A stretch of DNA of 38,564 bases from a virus. The stretch spans positions 1 to 38,564 of IMG/VR virus record IMGVR_UViG_3300032038_000266. One strand, 5' to 3'. The notes below the pieces were generated by a model. The model saw only the letters and a program-made list of their open reading frames with translations. It was not told where the DNA came from and searched no databases. Position numbers and translations under genes: made by a program. This document shows positions 1 to 38,564 of the stretch, piece by piece; within the stretch, counting starts at the first letter, position 1, and every line of letters begins with the position of its first letter.

Positions 1-127
1 TCCTCTGCGGCTTTCTCCGCCGCGCTCTTCTTTTGCTTACATCCGACAATCGCGATGCACGCGATGACGAGAATTGTCAATGCTCTTTTCATAGTGCTAT
101 GCTTTTGAGAGTGATTCAATGATCGAG
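1..127. repeat. Terminal overlap identical to 38438..38564 (circular-assembly overlap)
   Basis: Read directly: tcctctgcggctttctcc...gtgattcaatgatcgag occurs at both contig ends. It duplicates the 5' end of the minus-strand lipoprotein gene (ATG at 92..90 here, 38529..38527 at the other end). Confidence 0.95.
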
Positions 128-444
128 AGCAGCCTATCTATCTGCTCATCTTTCTTGGCAAGGAGCTGGACGAATCTTTCACTGTTCACATTATTCCGAT
201 TGCCGGCTACTGCCGTGCTTCCGTCTCCGGACGCGCTCGCCGTACATCCGGACGAGTCCACTCCGTAGAAGAACGGCACATCTTTGCCGATGATTGCCGC
301 AATGTCTTCAAGAAGTCCAGTTCTGATGTCATCTTTTGACAGTGCTGCTGATAAATTTTGTTGTGATATTCCGAGAATCCGCGCACAATGAGCTACGGAA
401 ACTCCATTTTCTTGCAAAATTTTTTTGACTTGTAAACCTTTCAT
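97..444 (-). CDS. XRE/Cro-CI-type HTH transcriptional regulator (candidate switch protein)
   Basis: ORF track 97..504. Start taken at internal ATG 444, giving MKGLQVKKILQENGVSVAHCARILGISQQNLSAAL (N-terminal HTH) and a C-terminal helical ERFVQLLAKKDEQIDRLLSIIESL. It is the first gene of the leftward operon, divergent from the early rightward genes. Confidence 0.7.
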   Translation of the reverse strand: MKGLQVKKILQENGVSVAHCARILGISQQNLSAALSKDDIRTGLLEDIAAIIGKDVPFFYGVDSSGCTASASGDGSTAVAGNRNNVNSERFVQLLAKKDEQIDRLLSIIESLSKA

Positions 445-619
445 AATTAGGCATTTAGTTAAAATCTCAGTTTGTTGGAACAAAAATACTTTGAAAAAAA
501 TCAAAGAAAAATTTGTAGAAACAAAAATTTGTTGTACCTTTGCTTCCGTAGTTCAGTATTGAACGCGGAACAAAGATACAAAATTAAACTGAAAAGTAAA
601 CAATTTAACAGCAAAAGCA
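445..619. promoter_or_regulatory. Divergent early control region with Bacteroidota-type promoters and dyad operators
   Basis: Rightward: TTTG at 512-515, 19-nt spacer, TACCTTTG at 535-542. Leftward: TATTTTTG is the reverse complement of 481-488. Dyads TTTGTT-GG-AACAAA (471-484) and AACAAA-AA-TTTGTT (520-533) each overlap one promoter. An extra AACAAA half-site lies at 569-574. Confidence 0.6.
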
Positions 620-949
620 ATGGAAAAGTTCTATCAGCTCACTCGCACAAACTGGCATCATTCGGACGAGAAAGATTTGTACTATCACAAGACTTTCAAC
701 TTTGCCACTCTCAAGGAAGCTCTTCAGAATCTGCTCGTGTGGGCGGACAAGGATGCCGAAGGGCGCAATCACGAAAACGGAGACGAATACATTGATTCCT
801 TCGGCGAGACTCGCCAGCAGTTCATCTATCAGGATGTCCGAGACGGAGCTGCTATCATCGAAATCCGCAAGCACAAGTGGACTGCCGAGAACGGTCTCGT
901 GAAAGACGAGCAAATCTGCCGCATCACTGTCACTGAAATTGTCTTCTGA
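620..949 (+). CDS. Hypothetical early protein (109 aa)
   Basis: ATG in GCAATGG context just downstream of the rightward promoter. No recognisable motif. Confidence 0.65.
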   Translation: MEKFYQLTRTNWHHSDEKDLYYHKTFNFATLKEALQNLLVWADKDAEGRNHENGDEYIDSFGETRQQFIYQDVRDGAAIIEIRKHKWTAENGLVKDEQICRITVTEIVF

Positions 950-950
950 T

Positions 951-1205
951 ATGGAACGCACACTCATCACTGAAGAACTCGTCAATGCTCGCGGCTTCGT
1001 CTGCGAGGATGCGGACAAGAGATTCCGGAAGCTGGTATGCCAGTGGAACAAGTTTCAGAAACTCACTCTCTTCTATGACCGTCTGACGGAACTTTGGACG
1101 CTCCAGTTTGCCTATAATGTCGAACACTCTCTCCGCTATATGGATCAGATAGACACAATCATCGCTCTTTGGAAAGATACATCAAAACTCAATAATCAGG
1201 AATAG
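951..1205 (+). CDS. Hypothetical early protein (84 aa)
   Basis: ORF track 939..1205 starts on TTG. The first ATG is at 951, directly after the upstream stop (947-949). Confidence 0.6.
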   Translation: MERTLITEELVNARGFVCEDADKRFRKLVCQWNKFQKLTLFYDRLTELWTLQFAYNVEHSLRYMDQIDTIIALWKDTSKLNNQE

Positions 1206-1207
1206 CT

Positions 1208-1711
1208 ATGGCAAGGACAAGACACACAAGAATCGAAAGCAGAGTGGCAGTGCAGCGCGTCCTTATGGATGTGTGGCAAGCCAAGAATGCCGGCAAGAAG
1301 TTCACGCTGGCGAATCTCTGCTCCAAGTACAACTGCGGCAACATCAACGGCGCAATCATCGCGGCAATGGACTTCAGCAAAGTCCCTGAGTACGCGGATG
1401 CAGTCGCTGTGCTGAAGGCAAACTCTGACTACAAGCGCAGCTGCAATGTAGGCACACGCAAGAGTGCGAAGCAAGCACTTGCAGACGCTCGCTCCGAGAG
1501 CGACATCCAGGCGGACGAGAGAGCAATCGCGGAGAAACTCTTCGGACAAGGGCATCGCGAGAACGAGAGCCAGCCTGGAAAGAAGTCTCCAGATCTCTCC
1601 GGACTCGATCTCCAGCCGGATCCGTCTTCGCTCTTTCCGGAGCAGTCGCTCATTCCGAAGGCAATCGCAATCTGCCAGCGCGCTGGCTACATCGTGAGCC
1701 GTCCGCTTTAA
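1208..1711 (+). CDS. Hypothetical early protein (167 aa)
   Basis: CTATGGCA start context, 2 nt after the previous stop. No recognisable motif. Confidence 0.65.
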   Translation: MARTRHTRIESRVAVQRVLMDVWQAKNAGKKFTLANLCSKYNCGNINGAIIAAMDFSKVPEYADAVAVLKANSDYKRSCNVGTRKSAKQALADARSESDIQADERAIAEKLFGQGHRENESQPGKKSPDLSGLDLQPDPSSLFPEQSLIPKAIAICQRAGYIVSRPL

Positions 1712-1740
1712 TTATCCACAAAATCGCTTATATCATAAAC
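1712..1740. promoter_or_regulatory. Perfect DnaA-box nonamer (TTATCCACA, 1712-1720) followed by a copy of the 15-bp dyad motif (GCTTATatcATAAAC, 1726-1740)
   Basis: Read directly in the 38-nt gap between ORFs 1208..1711 and 1750..1956. Confidence 0.4.
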
Positions 1741-1749
1741 ATTTTCACT

Positions 1750-1956
1750 ATGGCAAAAGCACAATTCAAGACTCCTTATCAGGAGAAGAAGGAAGCAAAA
1801 GAACTCCAGATCTACAACGATTATCAGAAAGCAACTGCGGATCCGTCCGCAAGCCGCACGGCAGTCAGAGACTATCTGATGCAGAAGTACAACATCGGCT
1901 CTACGGCTACATTCTACGCAATACTGGAACGGACTGAGAAGCGGCTGGCTCTATGA
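1750..1956 (+). CDS. Hypothetical protein (68 aa)
   Basis: CTATGGCA start context. No motif. Confidence 0.6.
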   Translation: MAKAQFKTPYQEKKEAKELQIYNDYQKATADPSASRTAVRDYLMQKYNIGSTATFYAILERTEKRLAL

Positions 1957-2108
1957 AGACGCTTATGACAATCGAAGAAGCGCGCGAGTTCTTCCGCAGC
2001 AAGAGAGAGCTGATTCTCTCCAACGGCATTCCGGAAGACAGCACAATCGCTCTCGCTTATCAAATCGCAATCGAAGCAATAGACTATGTCATCAGAAAAG
2101 AAAAGTAA
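1953..2108 (+). CDS. Small hypothetical protein (51 aa, below the ORF-track cutoff)
   Basis: ATGA stop/start overlap with the upstream gene. Translation: MKTLMTIEEAREFFRSKRELILSNGIPEDSTIALAYQIAIEAIDYVIRKEK. Confidence 0.4.
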   Translation: MKTLMTIEEAREFFRSKRELILSNGIPEDSTIALAYQIAIEAIDYVIRKEK

Positions 2109-2121
2109 ACGGACTAAAGCA

Positions 2122-2361
2122 ATGGAACGAATCATCTACGCAATCTCTCTACGCACTGTCTCCGGCTTCGTGCTTGGAATGGTCTCTCTCTACGGATGTC
2201 TCGCCAGCTGTGCCGGCGGAGACGAGTACGGCATCATCGCTCTTCTCGGACTGTGCGTCTCTCTGCTTATCGGCTGCGGCGCGTTCCGTCTCATCATCAA
2301 GGGACTGCTCCGCCGTGAGCCGCTCGCCAGGAAGTTCTATCATCTCTACTCTTCAAAATAG
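2122..2361 (+). CDS. Small membrane protein (two predicted TM helices)
   Basis: ORF track 2086..2361. The internal ATG 2122 has the recurrent GCAATGG context. Hydrophobic runs: VSGFVLGMVSLYGCLASCAG and IIALLGLCVSLLIGCGAF. Confidence 0.55.
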   Translation: MERIIYAISLRTVSGFVLGMVSLYGCLASCAGGDEYGIIALLGLCVSLLIGCGAFRLIIKGLLRREPLARKFYHLYSSK

Positions 2362-2369
2362 ACTGCGCT

Positions 2370-2705
2370 ATGTGTGAACTTTGTCACGGTATCAATTCGC
2401 ATCTATGTCCGAACTGCGGCTCTCGCAACGAAGTGGAATGTCCGGACTGTCACGGCGAGTGCTGGCTCTACGAAGCATTCAACATCGAATCTCGCACTAC
2501 ATTCCGCGTCTCGGCAGAAGAGTATGACGGACTGCCGGACAACGAGGAAGATGCAGCCAAGCAGTGCCGCCGTCTCTGCAAAGGAGACATTCAGAGATGT
2601 CCCACTTGTGACGGAAGCGGCTTCGTGGATGACGATCCGGCGGATCACTTTGACGAGCTGGCTGCTGAAGAACGCTACTATGAACGCAAATACGGAAAGC
2701 GATGA
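2370..2705 (+). CDS. Cysteine-rich zinc-finger protein (DnaJ-type CxxCxGxG motifs)
   Basis: CELCHG, CPNCGS, CPDCHGEC and CPTCDGSG motifs. Confidence 0.6.
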   Translation: MCELCHGINSHLCPNCGSRNEVECPDCHGECWLYEAFNIESRTTFRVSAEEYDGLPDNEEDAAKQCRRLCKGDIQRCPTCDGSGFVDDDPADHFDELAAEERYYERKYGKR

Positions 2706-2944
2706 AGACAATCAACATTCCTGACGATCTGATGACGCTGGCGGATGTGGCGGCGATGACGGCTCTCTCTCAGGACTATCTCTATCACATCTACAAGACG
2801 CAGATTCCGCACTATATGTTCGGCACGACTCCGCGCTTCTCCAAGAAGGAAGTGATCGAGTGGATCCAGTCGAAGCGAGTCTACACGAAGAAGGAGACTG
2901 TCGCTCGCGCTCATTCGTACTGCGTGACCGGAAGACATCAATGA
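2702..2944 (+). CDS. MerR/excisionase-like HTH DNA-binding protein (candidate Xis)
   Basis: LMTLADVAAMTALSQDYLYHIYKTQIPHYMFGTTPRFSKKEVIEWI resembles the HTH_17/AlpA-excisionase fold. ATGA overlap with the upstream gene. Confidence 0.55.
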   Translation: MKTINIPDDLMTLADVAAMTALSQDYLYHIYKTQIPHYMFGTTPRFSKKEVIEWIQSKRVYTKKETVARAHSYCVTGRHQ

Positions 2945-3038
2945 CACTTACGGCGGACGCTTGCAAGTTCACGGAGAACTGAGGGCGGCGCGAGTGATAC
3001 CTTTCACGAATAGATATTGATACGGCTCGCAGTCCGCG

Positions 3039-3063
3039 TGGAGTTCGACTCTCCAGTCCGCTA
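3039..3063 (+). other. tRNA 3'-end-like segment (T-arm plus 3' acceptor strand), not a complete tRNA
   Basis: tggag-TTCGACT-ctcca forms a 5-bp T-stem with a canonical TTCGA-type T-loop, followed by gtccgct + a. A perfectly complementary 5' strand (ggcggac, 2952-2958) exists, but it makes a 112-nt unit with no D or anticodon arm. Confidence 0.4.
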
Positions 3064-3115
3064 CAAATACCAACGCTCGAAGGTGTAAGAGAGCAATAAA
3101 ACTACACAATCAATT

Positions 3116-4033
3116 ATGGCTTATCAAAGCAAAGAAGTGAAAACTTCCAATCTCGCAGAGTTCAATGTGGCTCTGCGCTCGCAGAAGACTCAAGCAATGG
3201 TCTTGACATCTCTTCGCGGCAAGGCGGACGAGTATTTCCGCAACATCGCTTCCGCAGTGGCGAACTCCGCCGATTTGCAGAAGTGTGATCCAGTAACGCT
3301 CATCTGCGGCGGACTCCAGGCTGCGCAGCTCCAGCTTCCTCTCGGAAGCGGACTCGGCTTCGCGTATCTGATTCCCTTCAAGAACACGAAGAAAGGGATC
3401 TACGAAGCGCAGTTCCAGCTCGGCTATAAAGGACTCGTCCAGCTGGCAATCCGTTCCGGACTCTTCGCCGAAATCAACTGCGGCGAAGTGTACGAAGGCG
3501 AACTCTCCGACTTCAATCGCATCGCCGGCACATTCAAGCTGGACGGCAAGAAGGAGAGTGACAAAATCATCGGCTACTTCGCTTACTTCCGTCTGAACAA
3601 CGGAGACACTCCGGAGAAGTGCTTCTCGAAGTCTCTCTATATGTCCGCCGAAGAAGTGGAGAAGCACGCGAAACGCTACTCGCAGACATACTCCAGCCAG
3701 TATGACTCCACGCGCGCCGCATCCAAGTGGACAACGGACTTTGAAGCAATGGCAAAGAAGACCGTCCTCAAGCTCTTACTCTCTCGCTACGCTCCTATGT
3801 CCGTGGAGATCCAGCAAGCTGTCTCTTCAGATCAGGCAATCATCCGCGAAGACGGAGTGCTTGACTATGTGGACAACACAGCTCCGGAAGAGCAAGTCCA
3901 GGAAGAGAGCGCAGACGCTGCCGCCGCAATCCGTGGCGCAGCCGAGAACAAAGTCGCAGCCGCCGTGGAAGCATCTGATGCTGCTGTGGAGAAAGCGGAC
4001 AAAGACACTGGTGAAATCTTTAATCAGCAATAG
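3116..4033 (+). CDS. recT: RecT-family single-strand annealing protein
   Basis: GSGLGFAYLIPF and QFQLGYKGLVQLAIRSG motifs typical of RecT. Paired with a downstream YqaJ exonuclease. Confidence 0.85.
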   Translation: MAYQSKEVKTSNLAEFNVALRSQKTQAMVLTSLRGKADEYFRNIASAVANSADLQKCDPVTLICGGLQAAQLQLPLGSGLGFAYLIPFKNTKKGIYEAQFQLGYKGLVQLAIRSGLFAEINCGEVYEGELSDFNRIAGTFKLDGKKESDKIIGYFAYFRLNNGDTPEKCFSKSLYMSAEEVEKHAKRYSQTYSSQYDSTRAASKWTTDFEAMAKKTVLKLLLSRYAPMSVEIQQAVSSDQAIIREDGVLDYVDNTAPEEQVQEESADAAAAIRGAAENKVAAAVEASDAAVEKADKDTGEIFNQQ

Positions 4034-4035
4034 AT

Positions 4036-4503
4036 ATGGAAATTCTCATCGTAGATCCTATCTCTCTCGTGAATGTTCCGCTCCAGGAGTGGAAGGAGAG
4101 AGAGAATCCGCAGAGCGCGGATCTCATCGTCATCAAGACTGACGAGAAAGAACTTTACATCAGCAAGAACATTCTTCCAGGACGCTTCGACTTCAACGAT
4201 GCGCAGAAGGCAGCAGCCGCGTTCATTCCGGCTCGCTCTCCGAAGCTGGACTTCCGCTGTCCGACTCGCAAAGAGTGCATAGACATCTATGACGCTCGCT
4301 TCGCCGGACTGGATGAAGCAATCGAACTGCTCGGCGGAGAGAAAATCTCCGGTCACTGGTATTGGACTTCCGAAGCCGATCCGGATCCAGAGTACAACAG
4401 CAACAACGCGTTCTTCTTCTACGGCGGCTACGGCAGACTGGGCAGCATCTACAAGTACACCACAAACACTGTGCGTCCGGTCTCCGCTTTTCTGAATCGT
4501 TAA
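4036..4503 (+). CDS. Remote DGR target protein (155 aa, DUF1566/C-type-lectin-fold-like, VR2 at C-terminus)
   Basis: C-terminus ...GHWYWTSEADPDPEYNSNNAFFFYGGYGRLGSIYKYTTNTVRPVSAFLNR. Its last ~100 nt match TR with differences only at TR adenines. FRCPTRKECIDIY resembles the W-x-L-P-T/E-E-L motif of DUF1566. Start is 2 nt after the recT stop. Confidence 0.85.
   Translation: MEILIVDPISLVNVPLQEWKERENPQSADLIVIKTDEKELYISKNILPGRFDFNDAQKAAAAFIPARSPKLDFRCPTRKECIDIYDARFAGLDEAIELLGGEKISGHWYWTSEADPDPEYNSNNAFFFYGGYGRLGSIYKYTTNTVRPVSAFLNR
4390..4489 (+). repeat. DGR variable repeat 2 (VR2)
   Basis: Ungapped alignment to TR 32217..32316 gives 13 mismatches, all at TR adenines. Confidence 0.9.
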
Positions 4504-4514
4504 ACTGATTATCT

Positions 4515-4554
4515 ATTCCGCTCCGTGTTGCTCTACGGAGTCACGGAGCGGATT
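4515..4554 (+). promoter_or_regulatory. Hairpin 25 nt downstream of VR2 (candidate DGR target-recognition element / terminator)
   Basis: Arms attccgctccgtg / cacggagcggatt (13 nt, one internal mismatch), loop ttgctctacggagt. Same flanks and geometry as the hairpin after VR1. Confidence 0.6.
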
Positions 4555-4569
4555 CAAAAGACAAAGACT

Positions 4570-5532
4570 ATGGCAAATATCATCATTAGACCGAAGTCGC
4601 GCGAAGACTGGCTCAAGGAGCGCAGCACGCGCATCGGCGGCAGCGAAATCTCCGCTGTCGTGGGAATGAATCCGTTCGAGAGCGCATATTCATTGTGGCG
4701 CAGAAAGAAAGGACTGGATCCGGCGAAGACTGAGAACTTCGCTATGAAAGCCGGACACTATCTCGAAGACGCAGTGGCGCAGTTCTATCAGGACGCTTCC
4801 GGACGCTCTATCATCAAGCGCAGCGCAATTGACTGGCTGTATGTCAATCGCGAGAAGCCGTTCTTGTCCGGCAGTCCGGATCGCACATTTTGGCTCTCCG
4901 GCAACAAGGCGGACGGCAAAGGCGTACTGGAATGCAAGACAACGCAGAAGCCGATTGACGCAGAGGATCTGCCGCGCCACTGGTTTATCCAGGTGCAGTG
5001 GAATCTCGGACTGGCGGAGATGCCGCTCGGCTCTCTCGCTTGGCTCACTCAGGGCAGAGAGTTCGGCTACAAGGACATCGCGTTCGTTCCGGACTTCTAC
5101 GGCTGGCTCGTGGAAGAAGGGGAGAAGTTCTATCGCGACTGCATCATCGGAGACCGTGAGCCGGAAGCTCGCTGCGTGGCGGACATCCTGACGAAGTTCT
5201 CCAGGAGCGCAGCAGAGACTCGCGCTCTTGAGGAAGTCTTCTCCGGAGAGCCGGACAAAGCCGAGAGCATCGCGCTCGCTTGCTCGGAGTATAAGGAAAT
5301 CAAAGACCAGATCTCCGCGCTGGAAGAGAAGAAAGACGAGCTGGAAGAGCGCATCAAGATGTGCTTCGGAGAAGCTGAAGCAATCTCTTACGGCGGACTG
5401 ACTCTCGCCACTTGGAAGAGTGCGAAAGACTCGGAGAAGTTTGACGCGAAAGCATTCGCGAAGGACAATCCGGATCTCGCGGCTCAGTACACGAAGTCCG
5501 TTTCAGGCTCCAGGCGTTTTCTTGTCAAATAG
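4570..5532 (+). CDS. YqaJ-like viral recombinase-domain exonuclease (lambda Exo-type PD-(D/E)XK)
   Basis: RSTRIGGSEISAVVGMNPFESAYSLWRRKKG and GSPDRTF...LECKTT motifs. ORF track 4525 starts on GTG inside the hairpin. ATG 4570 has the CTATGGCA context. Confidence 0.85.
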   Translation: MANIIIRPKSREDWLKERSTRIGGSEISAVVGMNPFESAYSLWRRKKGLDPAKTENFAMKAGHYLEDAVAQFYQDASGRSIIKRSAIDWLYVNREKPFLSGSPDRTFWLSGNKADGKGVLECKTTQKPIDAEDLPRHWFIQVQWNLGLAEMPLGSLAWLTQGREFGYKDIAFVPDFYGWLVEEGEKFYRDCIIGDREPEARCVADILTKFSRSAAETRALEEVFSGEPDKAESIALACSEYKEIKDQISALEEKKDELEERIKMCFGEAEAISYGGLTLATWKSAKDSEKFDAKAFAKDNPDLAAQYTKSVSGSRRFLVK

Positions 5533-5540
5533 TGTGCGCT

Positions 5541-5798
5541 ATGGGAATACTATTGGGAAATCTCACAGTTCAAGACTTCGAGCAGCGTCTCGGAATCAAG
5601 TTCTCGGACGAAGACCGGAACGCGCTGAAGGAAATGCGCCAAGAGGAAGCGAGCAATCTCCAGCCAGGCAAGATTCACATCTTCGATCTTCCTTTCACTG
5701 TCGCTTGCGGAGACTCCGCCACGCAGAAGAAAGTGCTGGATATACTCTACAAGTTCGACACGAGCAAGTTTCCGCCGCTCTCTATCGGAGTCAAATAA
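5541..5798 (+). CDS. Hypothetical protein (85 aa)
   Basis: ORF track 5532 (GTG). First ATG at 5541 in CTATGG context. Confidence 0.55.
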   Translation: MGILLGNLTVQDFEQRLGIKFSDEDRNALKEMRQEEASNLQPGKIHIFDLPFTVACGDSATQKKVLDILYKFDTSKFPPLSIGVK

Positions 5799-5827
5799 AC
5801 TGTTCAGTTAAAAAATTTGACTGAAAG

Positions 5828-5860
5828 GCGTACAATATAAGCAGAAAATTCATACATTTG
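5828..5860 (+). promoter_or_regulatory. Promoter: degenerate 15-bp dyad (gcgtacaatATAAGC) + 10 nt + -7 box TACATTTG
   Basis: Same ATAAGC-N10-TAnnTTTG arrangement as at 12118-12150. It sits in the 220-nt gap ahead of the replication genes. Confidence 0.55.
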
Positions 5861-5883
5861 CATATCCTTAAATTCACGGCACT

Positions 5884-6021
5884 ATGGCAAAGTCATCTAC
5901 AATCAGAGTTTCGCACTCTCAGAATGGACTCTCCGCGAGGAAGTCCGGCGTTTCTTCACGCAGCTCTTGCGTGTCTGCCGTGACGCTTAGGAGTTCTGAG
6001 AGTGAGAAACTTTTTGTTTGA
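5884..6021 (+). CDS. Possible small Ser-rich ORF (45 aa) or untranslated leader
   Basis: CTATGGCA start context immediately downstream of the promoter. Translation: MAKSSTIRVSHSQNGLSARKSGVSSRSSCVSAVTLRSSESEKLFV. Composition is unconvincing. Confidence 0.25.
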   Translation: MAKSSTIRVSHSQNGLSARKSGVSSRSSCVSAVTLRSSESEKLFV

Positions 6022-6023
6022 CT

Positions 6024-6857
6024 ATGGCAACATCAAACGCATTCTACTTTCCTCACGATATGGATGCCGTGAGTGATCCAAAGCTCCAGTCCGTGCTTCG
6101 CGTGCGTGGAATGGAAGGAATCGGCGCATATTGGTGCTTGCTGGAGCGTCTCTATCGGCAGAACGGAGTCTTGTTCTTGTCGGAGATTCCGGATATGGCG
6201 TGGAGTCTTCATTGTGAAGAATCTCTCCTGGAATCAATCCTCAAGGACTTCGGACTATTCGAGATCCACGGAAACGAAGCGACATCTCGCTCGGCTTCCG
6301 AGAGGATCCTCAAAAGAGAAGAGCGCATCCGCAAGAATAAGGAAGCCGGCTCTCTTGGCGGCAAGACTACTCAAAGCAAGCGTTCAGCATCCGTGCCAGC
6401 AGATGCTTCGCAAATGCGAGACGAAAGTCAAGCAAATGCTCAAGCAGATGCTCAAGCAAATGCTTCGGCGGATGCTCAAGCAGGAAAGGAAAGGAAAGGA
6501 ATTGACGCTGGTGTGAGAGATAATGAACATAGTGTAGGTAAAAAGAAGAAAGAGATTGACTATTCATTTGTAGAAGAGGAACTCCGAGAACTATTCAAAG
6601 AGTTCGTCAAAATGAGGAAGGAAATCGGACATCCTATCAAAACACAACGCGGCGCGGAAGCTCGCTACGAAACACTATCTCGTCTCTCCGGCGGCAGAAT
6701 TGAACTCGCAAAGAAGATCATCCAGCAGTCTCTTGACAAAGAGTGGGAAGACTTCTACGAAATAAAGGACAGCAAAGGCAATGGAACTATCAATCGAAGC
6801 TCTCATCGCGGAAGTGACTCAGGGTATGTCCCTGACTACTCGAACACGGAGTTTTAA
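6024..6857 (+). CDS. Replisome organiser / replication initiation protein (Lin1244/DUF4373-like N-terminal domain)
   Basis: FYFPHDMDAVSDPKLQSVLRVRGMEGIGAYWCLLERLY matches the DUF4373 pattern. Central low-complexity QANAQADAQANASADAQAG segment. ORF track start 6018 is TTG; the ATG is at 6024. Confidence 0.7.
   Translation: MATSNAFYFPHDMDAVSDPKLQSVLRVRGMEGIGAYWCLLERLYRQNGVLFLSEIPDMAWSLHCEESLLESILKDFGLFEIHGNEATSRSASERILKREERIRKNKEAGSLGGKTTQSKRSASVPADASQMRDESQANAQADAQANASADAQAGKERKGIDAGVRDNEHSVGKKKKEIDYSFVEEELRELFKEFVKMRKEIGHPIKTQRGAEARYETLSRLSGGRIELAKKIIQQSLDKEWEDFYEIKDSKGNGTINRSSHRGSDSGYVPDYSNTEF
6398..6484. repeat. Array of dyad-symmetric ~12-bp iterons inside the initiator gene (candidate origin)
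   Basis: AGCAGATGCT 6398-6407, TCGCAAATGCGA 6408-6419, AGCAAATGCT 6431-6440, AGCAGATGCT 6443-6452, AGCAAATGCT 6455-6464 and a degenerate GGCGGATGCT 6467-6476, followed by (GGAAA)3 and an A/T-rich stretch. Confidence 0.45.
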
Positions 6858-7512
6858 CTTTCCGCTGACGCGCCAGCAGACGGAGACGCTGCTGCTCCAG
6901 GCATACAAAGCGCAAGTCGCGGCTCGTGGGATGCAGTTCGTGCTGGACGATTCAGTGCGCTACTACATCAGCGAGTTCTCGGACTGGCTGACGGATCCGA
7001 CTGACAAGTGCTTCATAATGTTCTCCGGCGGATGCGGCTGCGGCAAGACTACTCTCGCGCTGGCGTTCCGAGATATGACGAACGCAATCTGCGACAAGGC
7101 GTACAAAGCTCCGGAGTTTCTCCTGAAGGACAAGCCAGTCGAAGTGCAGCGTCAGTACGCGCAACTCGCTCGCTTTCCGCGCGTGTCTCTGAAGACTGCT
7201 CAAGAGATAAGTGATGCAGCCAGGCGCAGCCGCGAAGACCGGACTGACGAATACTACGCAATCAAGCGCAGCGCGTTTCTCATCATTGACGATCTCGGAT
7301 GCGAGCCAGTGGAAGTGAAGAACTTCGGCACATCCGTCACTCCTATCACGGACATCATCTACGAACGCTACGCGGCAATGAAGCCTACAATCATCACTAC
7401 AAACTTGGACACGCGCCAGATCCGCAGTGAGTACAACGAGCGAGTCGCAGATCGTCTGAACGAAATCTGCCGAGTCATCGGCTACAAGAACGAATCATAT
7501 CGCAAATCATAA
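6781..7512 (+). CDS. DnaC/IstB-like AAA+ ATPase (helicase loader)
   Basis: Walker A FSGGCGCGKTTLA and Walker B FLIIDDLG. Alternative start at 6826. Confidence 0.8.
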   Translation: MELSIEALIAEVTQGMSLTTRTRSFNFPLTRQQTETLLLQAYKAQVAARGMQFVLDDSVRYYISEFSDWLTDPTDKCFIMFSGGCGCGKTTLALAFRDMTNAICDKAYKAPEFLLKDKPVEVQRQYAQLARFPRVSLKTAQEISDAARRSREDRTDEYYAIKRSAFLIIDDLGCEPVEVKNFGTSVTPITDIIYERYAAMKPTIITTNLDTRQIRSEYNERVADRLNEICRVIGYKNESYRKS

Positions 7513-7525
7513 AACAGCAAACGCA

Positions 7526-8047
7526 ATGGACAAGCAACATCTTGAAAAACTCAGGCTTCCTCTTCCGGAAGCACTCGCCGGATTCTTCTTCAAGCACGAA
7601 GAGGAAGACGAACACGGCTACTATTCCACTGGCTTCTTCCGCTACAAAGGCAAGAATGTCTTCGTGAACATCGAAGAGGGCAAGTGGCATCTCTCCGCAG
7701 ACGCGAAGCGCACGCTCGGCTACTACGAGCTGAAGGAGCTTCGATATGTCTTCATTCCGAATCGCTGCTCCGTGGCTCAGATCTTTCCGCCGCGCGAAGA
7801 GTTCGTGAATGTCAATGTGAACTGCTTCCACTTGTACGAGATAGACTCTGACGGAGCAATGGAAGCCGCCGCCGATTCAATCGTGGCATTCCGCCAGGGG
7901 ATTGACCGCGCTGTCAAGGCTCTTCAGAAAGCAGTGGACAATCCGAAGAACGCGGACAAGGATATGGACTTCTTCAAGGGCAAGCTCGGCGCATACAAGG
8001 AAGTCGGAAAGATTATGGATGAAATGTTTTTCAAAAAACCGGAATAA
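7526..8047 (+). CDS. Hypothetical protein (173 aa)
   Basis: GCAATGG start context. No recognisable motif. Confidence 0.65.
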   Translation: MDKQHLEKLRLPLPEALAGFFFKHEEEDEHGYYSTGFFRYKGKNVFVNIEEGKWHLSADAKRTLGYYELKELRYVFIPNRCSVAQIFPPREEFVNVNVNCFHLYEIDSDGAMEAAADSIVAFRQGIDRAVKALQKAVDNPKNADKDMDFFKGKLGAYKEVGKIMDEMFFKKPE

Positions 8048-8048
8048 A

Positions 8049-8669
8049 ATGGAACGGATCAACTTCAAAAGAAACTTTAAGCTCTTCGCCGCTTGTGAGA
8101 AGGCGGCAGAACTCTCAATATGTCACGACTACGAGTTTGTCTATCTGCTGAACGGCTACGCATACGCATCCGATAGACATATTCTCGTCCGGATTCCTCT
8201 GAGCGTCTGCACGACATTCGATCCGGAAGACATTGCGAAGCTGGACAACATCCGGATCCACGCTTCTCTTCTGAAGACGCTATATGGATTCAATGTAGTT
8301 TCAATCAAGGAAGACTATGATGCAGTCGGAGATACATACGAAGAACTCCAGCCGCGCCACTTCGTTCAGCTCACTGCGGAGCGCGAAGGAAATCAGATCA
8401 GCGTCAAGCTCTACAAAATAGACAAGCATCCGAACTTTGAAGAAGTCCTGAAGATTGACGGAGACCGCGAGCCAATCAAGTCTCTCGGAGTCCGAGCGAA
8501 ACTTCTCGGCACGCTCGCCGATGCTATGGGAAGCTCCACTATCAAGATGCGCTTCACTCAGGCAAATCGCAAAGTCTTCATTCAAGATATGGATGACGCA
8601 GAGAACTCATCAATCGGACTGATTATGCCAGTGATCGTGGATGAGCCGCTGCCAGGCTTTGAAGACTGA
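8049..8669 (+). CDS. Hypothetical protein (206 aa)
   Basis: ORF track 7902..8669 overlaps the upstream gene. ATG 8049 follows its stop by 1 nt. There is only a weak resemblance to clamp-like proteins (GYAYASDRHILVRIP), which I do not trust. Confidence 0.6.
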   Translation: MERINFKRNFKLFAACEKAAELSICHDYEFVYLLNGYAYASDRHILVRIPLSVCTTFDPEDIAKLDNIRIHASLLKTLYGFNVVSIKEDYDAVGDTYEELQPRHFVQLTAEREGNQISVKLYKIDKHPNFEEVLKIDGDREPIKSLGVRAKLLGTLADAMGSSTIKMRFTQANRKVFIQDMDDAENSSIGLIMPVIVDEPLPGFED

Positions 8670-8670
8670 T

Positions 8671-8844
8671 ATGGAAGCAATCTGCAACAACTGCCGTCAT
8701 TTCCGTCAGACGGAGATGCGCGAAAGGGACGGCTCTATCGTCACTGTCGGATATTGCCACGCAATCAGTTCGTTTCCGTACCGGACTCCGGACTGCACTT
8801 GCCGGCGATTCCACTACAACGAACAAAAAGCAATCCAGCAATGA
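8671..8844 (+). CDS. Small Cys-rich protein (57 aa)
   Basis: MEAICNNCRHFRQ...GYCHA...PDCTCRRF. ATGA overlap with the methyltransferase start. Confidence 0.5.
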   Translation: MEAICNNCRHFRQTEMRERDGSIVTVGYCHAISSFPYRTPDCTCRRFHYNEQKAIQQ

Positions 8845-9740
8845 AACTCCGCGTCTTCACGGCATTCAGCGGCTATGACTCGCAGTGTATGGCACTCCAG
8901 CGCATCGCGGAGCGTCATCCGGACTTCGAGTTCGAGCTTGTAGGCTGGAGCGAGATCGAGCGCAATGCAATCGCCGCGCACGATGCTGTCTTTCCGCAGT
9001 GGCGTGACCGGAACTACGGAGACATCTGCGAGATTGACTGGACGAAAGTGCCGGACTTCGACTTGTTCACATACTCTTCTCCGTGTCAGGACTTCAGTCT
9101 TGCCGGCGTTCAGAGGGGGGGGCAAGAAGGAAGTGGAACTCGCAGTTCTCTTCTTTGGGAATGCCGCAGAGCGATTCTCGCAAAGCGTCCGCGCTTCCTC
9201 TTGCTGGAGAATGTCTCGAATCTCGTCAGCGAGAAGTTCATCAAGACTTTCTCCAAGTGGGAGCAAGAACTCGCTTCGTATGGCTATGACAACTACTACA
9301 AAGTGCTTAACGCGAAGGACTACGGCGTGCCGCAGAATCGCGAGCGAGTCTTTCTCGTCTCGTTTCTCCACAGCCAGATCTTCAACTTTCCGAAGCCAGT
9401 TCCGCTGGAGCTGCGGCTCAAGGATGTGCTTGAAGACAAAGTCGCGGAACGCTACTATCTCTCCGAGAAGGCAATCGCCGGACTGCTCGAACACAACGAA
9501 AAGCACGAAGCTCGCGGCACTGGATTCCTCTTCAAGCCGAAGGATATTTCCGTCAATGGGGGGGGGTACGCCAACTGTATCGCAACGAAGCCAGGCTACG
9601 AGACTGGAACATACATCCTCTGCTCGGATCATCCAAGTGGCGAAACTGAGCAGCTCGCAGAACAGCGTCATCGTGGATCCGGAAGGAATCTCTCCGACAA
9701 TCTGCAACGGCGCAAAGGACGGAATGCCGAAAATCGCTGA
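8841..9740 (+). CDS. DNA (cytosine-5)-methyltransferase, N-terminal catalytic part (motifs I-VIII plus first TRD-like segment); ends prematurely
   Basis: VFTAFSGYDSQ (I), YSSPCQDFSLAG (IV), LLLENV (VI), GVPQNRERVF (VIII). No motif IX/X before the stop at 9740. Contains a G8 tract (9115-9122) and a G9 tract (9558-9566). Confidence 0.85.
   Translation: MKLRVFTAFSGYDSQCMALQRIAERHPDFEFELVGWSEIERNAIAAHDAVFPQWRDRNYGDICEIDWTKVPDFDLFTYSSPCQDFSLAGVQRGGQEGSGTRSSLLWECRRAILAKRPRFLLLENVSNLVSEKFIKTFSKWEQELASYGYDNYYKVLNAKDYGVPQNRERVFLVSFLHSQIFNFPKPVPLELRLKDVLEDKVAERYYLSEKAIAGLLEHNEKHEARGTGFLFKPKDISVNGGGYANCIATKPGYETGTYILCSDHPSGETEQLAEQRHRGSGRNLSDNLQRRKGRNAENR
9115..9122 (+). repeat. Homopolymeric G8 tract inside the MTase, between motifs IV and VI
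   Basis: Counted directly (cagaGGGGGGGGcaag). Currently in frame (AGVQRGGQEGSG). Confidence 0.9.
9558..9566 (+). repeat. Homopolymeric G9 tract inside the MTase variable region
   Basis: Counted directly (caatGGGGGGGGGtacg). Loss of one G would move the reader into the frame of ORF 8965..9867. Confidence 0.9.
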
Positions 9741-9876
9741 AGTGGATGTAGTCGCGAGAGTGAACGCTTCGCAAGACGGCAAGATTGTCAGTCCGGACGG
9801 CATAGCTCCGGCTCTCTGCGTGGGACACTACAATGTGACGAAGATAATCGAATTTGATGAAGACTGATGAAACGAT

Positions 9877-10449
9877 ATGCCTGAACTCCAAAGTGAACGG
9901 AAGACAGCCGTCCCTGGAGCATCGCATCTATTCCGTGGAAGGATGCGCTCCGGCACTGACTACCGGCTTTCACTATCTCATCGCAATCGGGGGGGGCAGA
10001 TAGACACTAAAGATATGGAAACACTCAGAATCAGGGAAGCAACCGTGAAAGGATTCACGGAAGTCCAAGAGGGCGGACTCTTTGACGCATCATATCCGCA
10101 GTCGAAGACTCGGCGCGGAAGGGTGCAAGGAGAGAACGGCGAGCTGTGTCCGACTCTCACTACGCACGGAGACCGGATATGCCGCTTTGAAGGATCTGAC
10201 GGACGCACGATGCGAATCCGCCGTCTGACGGAGCGCGAATCGTTCCGGCTTATGGGAGTGCGCGACTCGGACATCGATCTCATTCAGGCGGCGGAGTTCG
10301 AGATCGAGAGCAAGGGCAAGACTCGCGTCAGTCGGATCTCTTCGACTCAGCAATACGCAATCGCCGGAAACAGCATTGTCGTGGATGTGCTTGACGCAAT
10401 CTTCGAGAATATGTTCTATCCGGTCAGGGAAGAAGGACAACTCTTCTGA
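9877..10449 (+). CDS. DNA (cytosine-5)-methyltransferase, C-terminal part (TRD-like segment + motifs IX and X)
   Basis: RRLTERESFRLMGV (IX) and AIAGNSIVV (X). Upstream TRD-like LRIREATVKGFTEVQEGG...SKTRRGRV...LCPTLTTHG. Confidence 0.8.
   Translation: MPELQSERKTAVPGASHLFRGRMRSGTDYRLSLSHRNRGGQIDTKDMETLRIREATVKGFTEVQEGGLFDASYPQSKTRRGRVQGENGELCPTLTTHGDRICRFEGSDGRTMRIRRLTERESFRLMGVRDSDIDLIQAAEFEIESKGKTRVSRISSTQQYAIAGNSIVVDVLDAIFENMFYPVREEGQLF
9989..9996 (+). repeat. Homopolymeric G8 tract at a frame junction in the MTase C-terminal region
   Basis: Counted directly (aatcGGGGGGGGcaga). Gain of one G would fuse the small ORF 9857..10003 to ORF 9877..10449. Confidence 0.9.
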
Positions 10450-27718: not shown

Positions 27719-27757
27719 CGGCTGCTTGGAAAGAGATTCTGAGCAGCCGGATTTTTT
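27719..27757 (+). terminator. Rho-independent terminator
   Basis: Stem cggctgct / agcagccg followed by gaTTTTTT. Confidence 0.65.
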
Positions 27758-27777
27758 AATAGCAAAACGGAAAGACA

Positions 27778-30310: not shown

Positions 30311-31651
30311 ATGGCAAAACAAGTAAACAAGTACGCAACGAAAGCTGCATACACTGCGGACACTAACCGTTCCGCAGCCAAGTCTGCCGTGTCCTATATC
30401 ACGGAAGACAGTGCCGTCAAGTATGACGGCGTGAATGCTGTCGTGGAGAAAGATGCTGCTCAGATCGGCGATCTGGTAGTGTATGACAAGAGCGAAGGAC
30501 GCATCCGCTTTGTCGTGGCGAAGACTCTCGTGAAGAATCAGCTCGGCGCGGAACTCGTTCCGCTTGCAGTCGTGTATGCTCGTCAGGGCAAGCGGCTGCT
30601 CATCGTCTCTCTCTCGAATCAAGGCTCACATCGCTGGGCGCATACTTTTGAAGTATGTCTGCGCGGCATTGATCCGACAACTGCCGGCACGCTGGCAATC
30701 ATCGTTCACAACAACGGCGCACTCTCCGAAGAAGTGGATGTGTCTTGGGGAAATGACAGCACGCTCGCCGCTATCGCCGCTTCTATCTCGGCTCAGTTCC
30801 AGACTCTGACTGACGCTGATGACAAAGCGTGGGTAGCTGCCGTAGACGGCGCGAACATTATTCTCGGACATAACTATTATCTCGTGGACACTGTCACTTC
30901 CGTCTCCGGAACTGGCGGCGGCGCGAATGTCTCCTATGTCGAAGACACTGTGAACTACCAGTGTAGTTATGCCTATCTCGCCGGAACTGAGGATGTCCGC
31001 AGAAACAACTATGTGGACACTTCCTTCGGCGGCGGCAATCTGAAGAAGTTCATTGACTACTACGGCACGAACGGAACGACTCCCACCGGAAACATTCCTC
31101 TCGGAGACAGCACGATTGTCAATCGCGCATCGTTCGAGTCCAGCGCATACTGCGCGGATCTGCGCGCCGCATACTCCACATACGAAGAGTATATGGAGAA
31201 GGAGCAGATGTGCCAGCTTCCGTCCAAGTTCGGAGCGCAGCTGCGTGACGGCAAGGAGACAACAGCCTGGCTCGCCGCTCAGTTCGGCACTGATGTCCGT
31301 GGCATAGACGAGCCGCGCTATCCGGCTGCTTCCGTGGTGAAGAACTACGGCGTGACCGTAGCCGGACACACGACTGGACTGGAGAGCGGACACTGGTGGC
31401 TTCCGTCCGTGACGGAGATGCTGATTCTGATGCGTGACCGCCGCTACAACGGCAGCGATACGGATCCGGATCCGATCAACGACACGCTCGTGAAGATGAG
31501 CGGAGATACTATCTACGGAAACGGATATTATCCGTGGACTTGTGGCGAGTACAACAGCAGCAGCGCGTTCCTCTTCAACGGCTACATCGGCACACTGCGC
31601 ATCCACGACAAGTACGGCGCAGGCACTGTGCGTCCGGTCTCCGCTTTGTAG
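30311..31651 (+). CDS. DGR target protein 1 (446 aa; putative receptor-binding protein with C-terminal DUF1566/C-type-lectin-fold-like domain carrying VR1)
   Basis: GHWWLPSVTEMLILM motif and C-terminus CGEYNSSSAFLFNGYIGTLRIHDKYGAGTVRPVSAL. The last 104 nt match TR apart from A-site changes. Confidence 0.9.
   Translation: MAKQVNKYATKAAYTADTNRSAAKSAVSYITEDSAVKYDGVNAVVEKDAAQIGDLVVYDKSEGRIRFVVAKTLVKNQLGAELVPLAVVYARQGKRLLIVSLSNQGSHRWAHTFEVCLRGIDPTTAGTLAIIVHNNGALSEEVDVSWGNDSTLAAIAASISAQFQTLTDADDKAWVAAVDGANIILGHNYYLVDTVTSVSGTGGGANVSYVEDTVNYQCSYAYLAGTEDVRRNNYVDTSFGGGNLKKFIDYYGTNGTTPTGNIPLGDSTIVNRASFESSAYCADLRAAYSTYEEYMEKEQMCQLPSKFGAQLRDGKETTAWLAAQFGTDVRGIDEPRYPAASVVKNYGVTVAGHTTGLESGHWWLPSVTEMLILMRDRRYNGSDTDPDPINDTLVKMSGDTIYGNGYYPWTCGEYNSSSAFLFNGYIGTLRIHDKYGAGTVRPVSAL
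31543..31646 (+). repeat. DGR variable repeat 1 (VR1)
   Basis: Ungapped alignment to TR 32213..32316 gives 17 mismatches, all at TR adenines. Confidence 0.92.
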
Positions 31652-31670
31652 ACTATTCCGAACATTCTTT

Positions 31671-31708
31671 ATTCCGCGCGGCATTGCCGTAGTGCTGCCG
31701 CGCGGATT
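31671..31708 (+). promoter_or_regulatory. Hairpin 24 nt downstream of VR1 (candidate DGR target-recognition element / terminator)
   Basis: Arms attccgcgcggca / tgccgcgcggatt (13 nt, one internal mismatch), loop ttgccgtagtgc, followed by cttt. Confidence 0.6.
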
Positions 31709-31732
31709 CTTTCAAGCGAACATTGATTCAGT

Positions 31733-32152
31733 ATGGCAAAGAATCTCGAAAAGCTGGAAATCTATCACAAGGCGTATCTCTTCTCGATCTACCTGGAGCA
31801 GAAAGTCACGAAGTTCGATAGACGCTATCGTTTCACGCTGGCGGACAAACTCTCGGACGGCATTGACAAGTTCATCTGCGCCGTGCTGGACGCGAATAGA
31901 GAGACGAACAAAGGCAAGGCTGCGCGCATCATCTACTATGCGCTTGGCGAGCTGGACAAGATAGAATACCGGACTCGGAAAGCAGTCGCTCTGAATCAGA
32001 TGTCCGTAGACACAAAGGCAAAATGCGACATTGCACTTGAAGACTTGCGCTCAGACGCAAGACGCTGGCGGAAATACTATCTCCAACTTTGTGGTGCGAG
32101 TGCCGGAGACGCTCCTGAAGAGGATGACTCTCCGGCAGAGAGCCAAGAATAG
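31733..32152 (+). CDS. avd: DGR accessory variability determinant (Avd-like four-helix-bundle protein)
   Basis: 139 aa, helical and basic (KLEIYHKAYLFSIYLEQKVTKFDRRYRFTLADKLSDGIDKF...). Sits in the canonical position between target and TR/RT. Confidence 0.75.
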   Translation: MAKNLEKLEIYHKAYLFSIYLEQKVTKFDRRYRFTLADKLSDGIDKFICAVLDANRETNKGKAARIIYYALGELDKIEYRTRKAVALNQMSVDTKAKCDIALEDLRSDARRWRKYYLQLCGASAGDAPEEDDSPAESQE

Positions 32153-32212
32153 ATTTGTTTTTGAAAAGGTCGCTGCGCTCTCATTCAGAGCTATATCGAA
32201 AGCAGCGAAAAT

Positions 32213-32316
32213 TGGCGAGTACAACAGCAACAACGCGTTCATCTTCAACGGCAACAACGGCAAACTGAACAACAACAACAAGTACAACACAAACACTGTG
32301 CGTCCGGTCTCCGATT
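32213..32316 (+). repeat. DGR template repeat (TR)
   Basis: 104 bp with 38 adenines and 12 AAC codons in the VR reading frame (GEYNSNNAFIFNGNNGKLNNNNKYNTNTVRPVSD). It is the donor for VR1 and VR2. Confidence 0.92.
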
Positions 32317-32336
32317 CTCAAAACAAACAGCGTGGA

Positions 32337-38251: not shown

Positions 38252-38529
38252 CTCTCTACGGTCTCAAGCGTCATACGGATCGTCTCTTCCAGATCTTTGC
38301 CGTGCAGCATCCGGAACATCTCGAATGTGGATGCAGTGTCTATCGGCATCATTCCGGCGGCTTCCAGTTCCGCGTTCGCGCGTATGATGCGCTCTCGCGC
38401 GCTTTCAATTATTGTCTGCTCATACTGGAGCTGCGCTTCCTCTGCGGCTTTCTCCGCCGCGCTCTTCTTTTGCTTACATCCGACAATCGCGATGCACGCG
38501 ATGACGAGAATTGTCAATGCTCTTTTCAT
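38248..38529 (-). CDS. Small lipoprotein (93 aa) in the lysogeny operon
   Basis: MKRALTILVIACIAIVGC gives a signal peptide with an I-V-G-C lipobox. The start lies 4 nt after the stop of HTH gene 97..444 across the circular junction. ATGA overlap with the next gene. Confidence 0.7.
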   Translation of the reverse strand: MKRALTILVIACIAIVGCKQKKSAAEKAAEEAQLQYEQTIIESARERIIRANAELEAAGMMPIDTASTFEMFRMLHGKDLEETIRMTLETVER

Positions 38530-38564
38530 AGTGCTATGCTTTTGAGAGTGATTCAATGATCGAG
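38438..38564. repeat. Terminal overlap identical to 1..127
   Basis: Exact 127-nt identity with the start of the window. Confidence 0.95.

Follow-up and report, generated by a model that had tools for sequence, protein, structure and literature searches.

Poly-G tracts and recognition modules in a split phage cytosine-C5 methyltransferase locus: a candidate specificity switch

Background

Phase-variable DNA methyltransferases are well known, most of them acting as simple on/off systems such as the Type III mod phasevarions. Here we describe a locus for a cytosine-C5 methyltransferase (C5-MTase) at positions 8841–10449 of the IMG/VR virus record IMGVR_UViG_3300032038_000266, a phage sequence of 38,564 nucleotides which was analysed over its whole length and is referred to as the window. 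The gene is distributed over three reading frames, contains three long poly-G tracts, and has a variable region composed of several modules that resemble target recognition domains (TRDs). The reading we favour, with a probability of roughly 0.6, is that of a poly-G-switched, module-selecting split methyltransferase in a temperate phage.

In Neisseria gonorrhoeae, a poly-G frameshift in the hsdS gene of NgoAV changes the specificity of the enzyme and does not abolish it (PMC6789123). A CpG-specific C5-MTase of Mycoplasma agalactiae is switched on and off by a mid-gene G6–G11 tract, the tracts of mycoplasmas being poly(G) or poly(GA) (PMC9465063). These genes and the Type III mod genes share with the window locus a homopolymer in coding sequence that re-phases translation; however, they are cellular and have one tract per gene, whereas the locus described here is phage-borne and has three tracts (up to 15 in relatives). 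Moreover, its tracts are located at or in module borders, with successive modules in successive frames, so that slippage could select modules.

The Bacillus phage enzymes M.SPRI, M.Phi3TI, M.Rho11sI and M.H2I, known from the work of the Trautner laboratory, are orphan C5-MTases with tandem TRDs between motifs VIII and IX, each of which confers one specificity. Like the window locus, they are phage-encoded and have several tandem modules in this position, but they are single polypeptides that contain all of their TRDs at any time; the window locus distributes its modules across three frames and two or three cistrons, with the tracts as gates. Divided C5-MTases have also been described. M.AquI carries motifs I–VIII together with a portion of the variable region on one polypeptide and the remainder, with motifs IX–X, on another, and both M.AquI and fragment complementation of other C5-MTases indicate that such halves can assemble (PMC3404938). 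The window locus resembles M.AquI and M.EcoHK31I in architecture, with overlapping open reading frames (ORFs) and the same division as in M.AquI, but each half is phase-variable with whole modules, and there are relatives with many more cistrons.

Contingency loci of phages include poly-G tracts in the receptor-binding protein genes of Campylobacter Fletchervirus phages and homopolymers in T2/T4; a 2025 preprint on the subject also notes an unstudied poly-G tract in the methylase gene of Bordetella phage BPP-1 (PMC12633550). In the GenBank record of BPP-1, we found a single C8/G8 run in the adenine methylase gene bpm. Both BPP-1 and the phage of the window are temperate phages with a diversity-generating retroelement (DGR) and a homopolymer in a methylase gene. 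The phage contingency loci and the locus described here have hypermutable homopolymers for bet-hedging in common, the former, in contrast, consisting of one on/off tract each, in a gene for receptor binding, the baseplate or an adenine methylase. The Type I hsdS shufflons (SpnIII/ivr of pneumococci, Mycoplasma pulmonis, Bacteroides fragilis) arrive at the same outcome, stochastic TRD switching, by site-specific inversion between hsdS copies, whereas the window locus would do so by slipped-strand frameshifting along a collinear module array. Phase-variable, multispecific and split methyltransferases are each known separately and are here combined. Full-text literature did not yield a multi-tract, module-selecting, split phage C5-MTase; coverage was incomplete, and this is absence of evidence only.

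Results and discussion

Organization of the methyltransferase locus

The locus was mapped by comparing its three-frame translation with single-chain homologues of 510–540 aa (P0004, P0005, P0009). The N-half, a plus-strand ORF of 299 aa at 8841–9740 (frame 0), comprises motifs I–VIII, tracts 1 and 2, a first module (M1) and an unconserved tail. It matches positions 7–227 of the Pfam family PF00145 (E=2e-48), the motifs FSGYDS, PCQDFS, ENV and QNRERVF being visible, and its core aligns to M.MpeI (4dkj) and M.HhaI; the identical protein occurs in other assemblies (P0121). The region 9877–10449 matches positions 235–322 of the same family (E=4e-8), with RRLTERESFRLMG and GNSIVV as visible elements of motifs IX–X. 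The first-pass annotation of this DNA had proposed such a division of motifs I–VIII and IX–X between separate ORFs, and the two Pfam matches agree with it. Likewise, the ORF list contains its ORFs 8841–9740, 8965–9867 and 9877–10449 and the small ORF starting at ATG 9857, and three-frame translation confirmed stops in every frame between the two main ORFs. While that description of the locus stands, homology to single-chain relatives adds that five TRD-like modules, M1–M5, follow one another in the variable region between motifs VIII and IX.

Tract 1 (9115–9122, plus strand) is a G8 run located just past the catalytic PCQ of motif IV; it is in frame and encodes ...QRGGQEG.... Tract 2 (9558–9566, plus strand) is G9 and encodes NGGG. 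It is followed by the alpha-type recognition module M1, YANCIATKPGYETGTYIL (9567–9620, plus strand, frame 0), which is read solely when the length of tract 2 is 0 mod 3 (G9), and which is homologous to in-frame modules of P0009, P0079, P0073 and P0090. In the G9 state, M1 is succeeded by a frame-0 tail of 39 aa and a stop (9621–9740, plus strand), whose protein sequence is not conserved. Read in frame 1, the M1 DNA codes for a 19-aa linker, TPTVSQRSQATRLEHTSSA, and leads into the beta-type modules M2 and M3 (...SSSQNSVIVDPEGISPTICNG..., ...SQDGKIVSPDGIAPALCVG...) at 9622–9867 (plus strand, frame 1), which end at TGA 9865–9867 and can be reached with G8 or G11 at tract 2 only. Products of 341/343 aa comprising core, M2 and M3 are present in other assemblies (P0001, P0123, P0130, P0131, P0136, P0140).

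At the split junction ATGAAGACTGA (9857–9867, plus strand), the start codon of the next cistron, in frame 2, overlaps the N-half stop, in frame 1. This cistron (9857–10003, plus strand, frame 2; enclosed by ORF 9854–10003) encodes the gamma-type module M4, MKTDETICLNSKVNGRQPSLEHRIYSVEGCAPALTTGFHYLIAIGGG, and in the window ends at TAG 10001–10003 after 48 aa. From ATG 9857 to tract 3, it reads ...ICLNSKVNGRQPSLEHRIY...TTGFH, and it is homologous to in-frame modules of P0004 and P0005. Tract 3 (9989–9996, plus strand; G8) separates M4 from the delta-type module M5, METLRIREATVKGFTEVQEGGLFDASYPQSKTRRGRV...CPTLTT, which together with motifs IX and X extends over 10015–10449 (plus strand, frame 1). 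The reading from tract 3 to 10449 is ...ATVKGF...SKTRRGRV...CPTLTT, followed by motifs IX and X. M5 has its own ATG at 10015, 12 nt past the M4 stop, which was picked by gene callers in several assemblies (P0151, P0154, P0158).

The frame changes at ~9621 and 9857–9867 are located outside homopolymers. Because of the one at 9857–9867, no combination of tract lengths restores one continuous ORF, and a single ORF arising from tract changes alone was rejected.

Each strand has a very long open frame running over the methyltransferase gene, 8814–9803 on the minus strand and 8965–9867 on the plus strand (frame 1), and in a second lineage of related phages all three plus-strand frames are open for ~590 nt between tracts 1 and 2. 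We do not consider 8965–9867 (plus) and 8814–9803 (minus) to be genes of their own; the low T content of the plus strand (20.6%) accounts for their openness, and the alternative plus-strand frames have ratios of non-synonymous to synonymous differences (pN/pS) above 1. The long overlapping frames are probably a by-product of this base composition.

Poly-G tracts and their variation among related phages

In the window (38,564 bases), G and C runs of more than five occur at the three tracts only, all of them inside the one C5-MTase locus. The homopolymer count comprises ten G4 runs, one G5 run and then runs of 8, 8 and 9, while the longest C run is 4. Three runs of G8 or longer compare with 8e-5 expected when the remainder of the window is modelled as a second-order Markov chain. 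The plus strand is generally depleted, GGG occurring at 0.18 and CCC at 0.03 of the expected frequency (24 CCC in 38.5 kb), possible causes being codon usage, selection against runs prone to slippage, and evasion of a host defence target. The lengths and positions of the tracts, and the lack of comparable G tracts elsewhere in the window, had been reported correctly in the first-pass annotation. The locus thereby shows a hallmark of contingency loci, an in-frame repeat tract that is anomalous for its genome.

Contigs of relatives were retrieved and aligned, resulting in 11 loci with conserved flanks, including that of the window, which belong to two lineages diverged by ~10%. The lengths of tracts 1/2/3 are 8/9/8 in the window, 8/8/9 in L001, 9/8/8 in L013, 9/9/8 in L014, 8/8/8 in L015, 8/9/8 in L016, 8/9/9 in L002, 8/8/9 in L017, 9/8/7 in both L018 and L019, and 10/8/absent in L003. 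No further G or C run of at least 6 was present in these 2–7 kb loci. The same tract states recur in both lineages, and L015 and L016, which originate from different samples, are separated by a single substitution over 3036 aligned nt (99.97% identity) and by the length of tract 2 (8 vs 9). On a broader scale, the 90%-identity clusters of the N-half and the C-half comprise >40 genes called in assemblies of ENA, JGI and Logan, many of which are on contigs of 38–39 kb, and the tract lengths in these assemblies span G6–G11.

The proteins in databases that come closest represent alternative readings of this one gene. P0001 (341 aa) continues in frame 1 after tract 2, P0002 (299 aa) in frame 0 as in the window, and P0003 enters from another frame at tract 1. 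Among distinct proteins, 20 have tract 1 in frame and six have it out of frame (G9, G10); the latter alleles result in genes that are N-terminally out of frame (P0129, P0134, P0135, P0143, P0144, P0003). Tract 2 has lengths of 7, 8, 9, 10 and 11 in relatives, and the distinct N-half proteins continue in frame 0 (n = 9, the window among them), frame 1 (n = 12, one with G11) or frame 2 (n = 4, with G7 and G10). One G fewer at tract 2 had been predicted to shift translation into the frame of 8965–9867, and the 341-aa protein P0123 is 99% identical to the predicted product. Tract 3 is G7, G8 or G9 in the loci read. One G more at this tract had been expected to fuse the ATG 9857 ORF to the motif IX/X ORF; exactly this product, the window sequence plus one G, exists as the 197-aa P0146 on three contigs, and further fused forms are P0147, P0152, P0155 and P0159. 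A G6 allele is also fused (P0156, 196 aa), while the unlinked 48-aa product (P0145) was found on seven contigs.

Thus, all three tracts differ among near-identical genomes from independent samples, and slipped-strand changes at them demonstrably re-phase the reading frame, as anticipated by the phase-variation reading of the first-pass annotation. In the comparison with homologues from related phages, which it had also proposed, the tract lengths vary and the flanks and the split junction are conserved. Since tract lengths vary on identical flanks and the same states recur in both lineages, the locus is very likely a true contingency locus with hypermutable tracts.

Homopolymers are error-prone in several sequencing technologies, and the differences could in principle be sequencing or assembly errors in a gene of one fixed structure. 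However, the tracts are conserved in diverged lineages and found in this gene alone, their G6–G11 range was observed across ENA, JGI and Logan assemblies from different assemblers, and both alternative frames carry a signal of selection (see below). Moreover, the split junction and the M1/M2 frame change, which are outside homopolymers, are common to all contigs retaining them, and a continuous ORF does not result from any one set of lengths. We therefore regard a technical artefact as very improbable, and the option of an assembly error, in which one other tract length would restore a continuous ORF, is refuted.

Purifying selection in different reading frames

Selection was estimated frame by frame as Nei-Gojobori pN/pS between the window and three genomes of the second lineage. 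The core (8841–9557) in frame 0 showed values of 0.10–0.21, M1 (9567–9620) in frame 0 of 0.05–0.15, and the M2/M3 region (9621–9864) in frame 1 of 0.08–0.24. M4 (9869–9988) in frame 2 and M5 with motifs IX–X (9997–10446) in frame 1 gave 0.45–0.54 and 0.38–0.45, respectively. Values for other frames were in the range of 1.2–3.2 (1.3–2.3 for M4), except for M1 in frame 1 (0.7–2.0, which is noisy and includes one three-substitution estimate). The frame-0 tail 9621–9740 had a pN/pS of 2.3–2.6, and the translation following M1 appears to be junk.

These values bear on the proposal, also made in the first-pass annotation, that the gene might be decaying. It is in pieces over three frames in the window and gene callers give truncated products, as would be expected of a pseudogene disrupted by frameshifts. 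Yet every segment, read in its correct frame, has a pN/pS far below 1, both frames after tract 2 stay intact whatever its current state, and the architecture is kept across lineages of 66% to ~90% identity. Decay is refuted by the purifying selection acting on each segment in its own frame, and the probability left to it is almost negligible.

M1, which requires G9, and M2/M3, which require G8 or G11, are both under selection and can never be read in the same state. For this reason, the term selector would fit tract 2 better than that of an on/off switch. The first-pass annotation was right that tract 2 shifts the frame; the selection on M1 and M2/M3 in different frames extends this to a putative selector of modules. 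The competing explanation is plain on/off phase variation of a split enzyme, in which only 8/8/9 would be active, all other states being off and M1 being a vestige. Such behaviour is standard for homopolymers in methyltransferase genes, as in the mycoplasma CpG methyltransferases (PMC9465063) and the Type III mod genes, and the all-on genotype does exist (L001). It is at odds, however, with the purifying selection on M1 in frame 0, which would be unreadable in the "on" state, and with the finding that nine of the 25 distinct N-half sequences, that of the window included, are in the G9 state.

The split enzyme and its junctions

Motifs I–VIII and IX–X are located on separate ORFs, the break is in the variable region, and the arrangement is conserved in relatives. 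The junction at 9857–9867 is kept in all contigs retaining the stretch; it reads ATGAAGACTGA in the window and ATGAGAACTGA in the second lineage, and in both lineages the TGA of the N-half is overlapped by an ATG in the next frame. Many homologues of ~300 aa are free-standing N-halves which end after a beta module. The first-pass annotation had offered a split, M.AquI-like enzyme as an alternative to phase variation; the conserved stop/ATG overlap and the free-standing N-half homologues support it, and we consider a functional two-part C5-MTase of the M.AquI type likely.

In relatives with extended module arrays (L007, L030, L004), nearly every boundary read has the sequence ...I-Y-E-T followed by a stop one to nine codons on, with ATGAA overlapping in the +1 frame. 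The gamma and delta modules of array-type loci begin with Met, as in MKTDETICLNSK and METLRIREATVKGF of the window, MKIRDATKKGY of L004 and MKHSKVTLHIPQATKLGY of L007, and Met is likewise present at the start of M5-type modules in the L004, L007 and L030 arrays, while single-chain homologues have no Met at the start of gamma or delta modules. Because the ATG and stop overlap is conserved and a module-start Met occurs in array-type loci alone, the junctions are read as probable termination-reinitiation sites.

Alternatively, the frames might be joined in expression, with RNA polymerase slippage or programmed frameshifting at the tracts, at ~9621 and at 9857–9867 resulting in one long multispecific enzyme or a mixture of isoforms, and DNA-level variation being secondary. 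Long homopolymers can cause transcriptional slippage, the single-chain homologues P0004, P0005 and P0009 (510–540 aa) hold the same modules in one frame, and every array junction is a +1 frame step. On the other hand, the DNA at the M1/M2 frame change (~9615–9625) differs between the lineages (CTCTGCTCGG vs ATCTGCGAAG), and no shared slippery motif was seen on inspection, no dedicated search for slippery sequences having been run. In addition, the junction stop lies one to nine codons past a conserved ATGAA whose ATG is always there, which suggests re-initiation, and length variation at the DNA level is directly documented. Joining in expression thus appears quite improbable.

One relative has lost the split. 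In L003 (1200–2560; corresponding to window 9769–10133), a deletion between GAACGGC repeats has taken out the last part of M3 along with the junction, M4 and tract 3, leaving an in-frame single-chain methyltransferase in which the halves are re-fused. This deletion may be taken as evidence that modules are also reshuffled by recombination.

Recognition modules and tracts in related loci

In some single-chain relatives, one module makes up the whole variable region between motifs VIII and IX: an alpha module in P0073 and P0090, a delta module in P0106 (1082 members) and an epsilon module in P0022. Such enzymes suggest that the modules may be autonomous TRDs. The multispecific rho11s enzyme of a Bacillus phage aligns weakly to the N-half (98% coverage, 29% identity).

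A tract at the offset of tract 2 is also found in L023, L028, L030 and L074. In L004/L028 (the same locus; 66% aa identity), the tract 2 site is occupied by G9, with an M1-type module in the upstream frame, an M2-type module in the +1 frame, and an open linker. In L023, the tract at an offset of 717 nt, equal to that of tract 2, picks between two paralogous alpha modules, each with a stop: either YANCIRANAALNATDNAIIE-stop, or, via the window-like linker GGGTPTVSEQ..., VANCIRANSAVCPTDNFIIDNG-stop. A tract at position 3530 of L007 leads either through a complete module A or, skipping it, into module B, and two tracts of L030 precede three alpha modules that occupy two frames. Judging from these comparisons, the selector design of tract 2 appears to be conserved in relatives. 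With regard to plain on/off variation, several tracts of relatives are followed by stops within 3–10 codons in both alternative frames, as it would predict; nevertheless, the two-frame layout is kept in L004/L028 and L023, and both options in L023 are complete alpha modules with their own stop. Together with the selection on M1, this makes on/off variation without module choice unlikely as a full account of the window locus.

Two or more tracts of G7+ occur in 8 or 9 of 80 homologous methyltransferase loci of IMG/VR (for example L023, L028, L030 with 13–15 tracts, L064, L073, L074 and L083), nearly all tracts being located 680 nt or more from the start, within the variable region. Tract density amounts to 29 in 191 kb of methyltransferase regions, as compared to 11 in 365 kb of flanks. 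L030 has, in addition, a tract in the core (offset 178). Since its site is unlike that of tract 1 of the window, a master switch appears to have arisen more than once. The first-pass annotation had treated one locus; other methyltransferase genes of phages share this design, often in a much expanded form.

Arrays of nine or more module cassettes with +1-frame ATGAA(A) boundaries were observed in L007 (3420–5060) and L030 (3480–6300). Most of these cassettes have one G7–G9 tract (once C8) at a Gly-Gly-Gly motif, and L030 has ~15 tracts in 2.6 kb. The longest tract seen, G14, is located at 5121–5134 of L064, in a related methyltransferase array.

Proposed mode of action

We propose that the locus encodes an orphan C5-MTase made from two or three translationally coupled polypeptides, in which replication slippage would act like railway points, choosing the recognition modules that are joined to the catalytic core. 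Tract 1 would be the master switch, the catalytic N-half being on at G8 or G11 and otherwise off. With G9 at tract 2, the ribosome would finish M1 and stop at 9740; with G8 or G11, the M1 DNA would be read in another frame, yielding a short linker, and translation would proceed through M2 and M3 and stop at 9865; with G7 or G10, an early stop would leave no module. Tract 3 at G9 or G6 would fuse M4 to M5-IX-X, while in other states M4 would be released as a 48-aa peptide and M5-IX-X produced from its own ATG 10015. The N-half and C-half would then assemble as in M.AquI, so that the 8/9/8 state of the window would combine core and M1 with M5-IX-X. Each lineage would throw off progeny methylating different sets of target sites or none, presumably a bet-hedge between hosts with classical restriction, where methylation protects, and hosts with methylation-dependent restriction, where it is lethal.

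Several points weigh against this proposal. M1 comprises 18 codons, and with up to six synonymous vs one or two non-synonymous changes it is the weakest link of the selector argument; besides, the G9 state puts the 39-aa junk tail after M1, and there is no clean stop. No single-module enzyme was found for beta (M2, M3) or gamma (M4) among the matches examined, and it is from homology that each module may be taken for an active TRD with its own specificity. AlphaFold2 models of the 299-aa (G9) and 341-aa (G8) N-halves, computed as single chains from alignments of 89–96 sequences, predicted the core well, but past residue ~238, that is, over the whole module region, the predicted local distance difference test score (pLDDT) is <50; in a sequence search of the PDB, the catalytic core was matched and the modules were not. 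M5-IX-X would presumably be translated from ATG 10015 whatever the state of tract 3, and tract 3 would therefore only link or unlink M4. Many tracts of relatives resemble simple switches that turn a single module on or off, and a comparison of second open frames after 43 tracts with random positions in the same arrays was marginal (p = 0.049), the loci not all being independent, so that we do not rely on it. Finally, switching within a clone is deduced from differences between samples. Overall, we see the balance as tilting slightly towards a switching of specificity by the tracts.

Genome context

The ends of the window are duplicated, 1–127 being identical to 38438–38564 over 127 nt, indicating that it represents a complete phage genome, circular or terminally redundant, of ~38,437 bp, with the identical ends as assembler overlap. 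PHROG matches comprise RecT, a RecE-like exonuclease, a replication initiator, large terminase, portal, protease, tape measure, integrase and reverse transcriptase, and the phage is temperate and tailed. Its origin is given as gut or rumen. The methyltransferase is located in the early/replication module. No restriction gene was recognised near it, the small neighbouring ORFs not having been screened for one.

ORFs of at least 120 aa are without an upstream Shine-Dalgarno motif, and many leaders are A-rich (e.g., 3091–3115, 8816–8840, 27753–27777), which hints at the translation system of a Bacteroidota-type host. Among 185,579 reference genomes, the N-half has only distant matches, from Streptomyces, which do not pinpoint a host, and megablast of the locus against GenBank phages gave no match. 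The GenBank phage relatives MT835567 and PV036447 are without tracts.

The early region is mosaic among otherwise similar phages. In L002, of the second lineage, a Mom-family gene (PF25680; 2562–2999) is the immediate upstream neighbour of the methyltransferase, a position taken in the window by unrelated small ORFs (8019–8844). The window ORF 12455–13003 matches PHROGs annotated as ParB-like and "DNA methyltransferase" (phrog_620, phrog_498) and may code for a protein with a ParB-like N-terminal domain or be a second modification-related gene.

A DGR is present at 30311–33623 of the window. Its variable repeat (31543–31646) and template repeat (32213–32316), a pair of 104 nt, are 84% identical, and all 17 of the 17 mismatches have A in the template copy and another base in the other copy. 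The variable copy is situated at the 3' terminus of gene 30311–31651, and downstream there is a reverse transcriptase ORF (32124–33623, PHROG match). The phage thus has two independent diversity generators, the DGR and the methyltransferase tracts, as does Bordetella phage BPP-1.

Conclusions

We give an even chance to the broader proposition that loci of this kind, with TRD cassettes in successively shifted frames, separated by stop/start junctions and each gated by poly-G, constitute an undescribed class of phage epigenetic diversity generator. For annotation, it is relevant that pipelines call such genes fragmented or pseudogenes, although the "frameshifts" are informative states. The lengths of all three tracts and the 5-methylcytosine (5mC) motifs are readable on one long native read, providing a link between genotype and epigenotype, and the naturally delimited module cassettes could guide the engineering of C5-MTase specificity. 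If the proposal is true, recognition modules chosen by frameshift would be a specificity switch distinct from the Type I shufflons. The window, with five modules and three tracts, would then allow up to about six "on" specificity patterns plus "off", and L030, with its ~15 tracts, far more. Phages would diversify their own epigenetic coat by contingency loci, beyond receptor-binding proteins, and a phage population would keep sampling methylation patterns against the restriction repertoires of its hosts.

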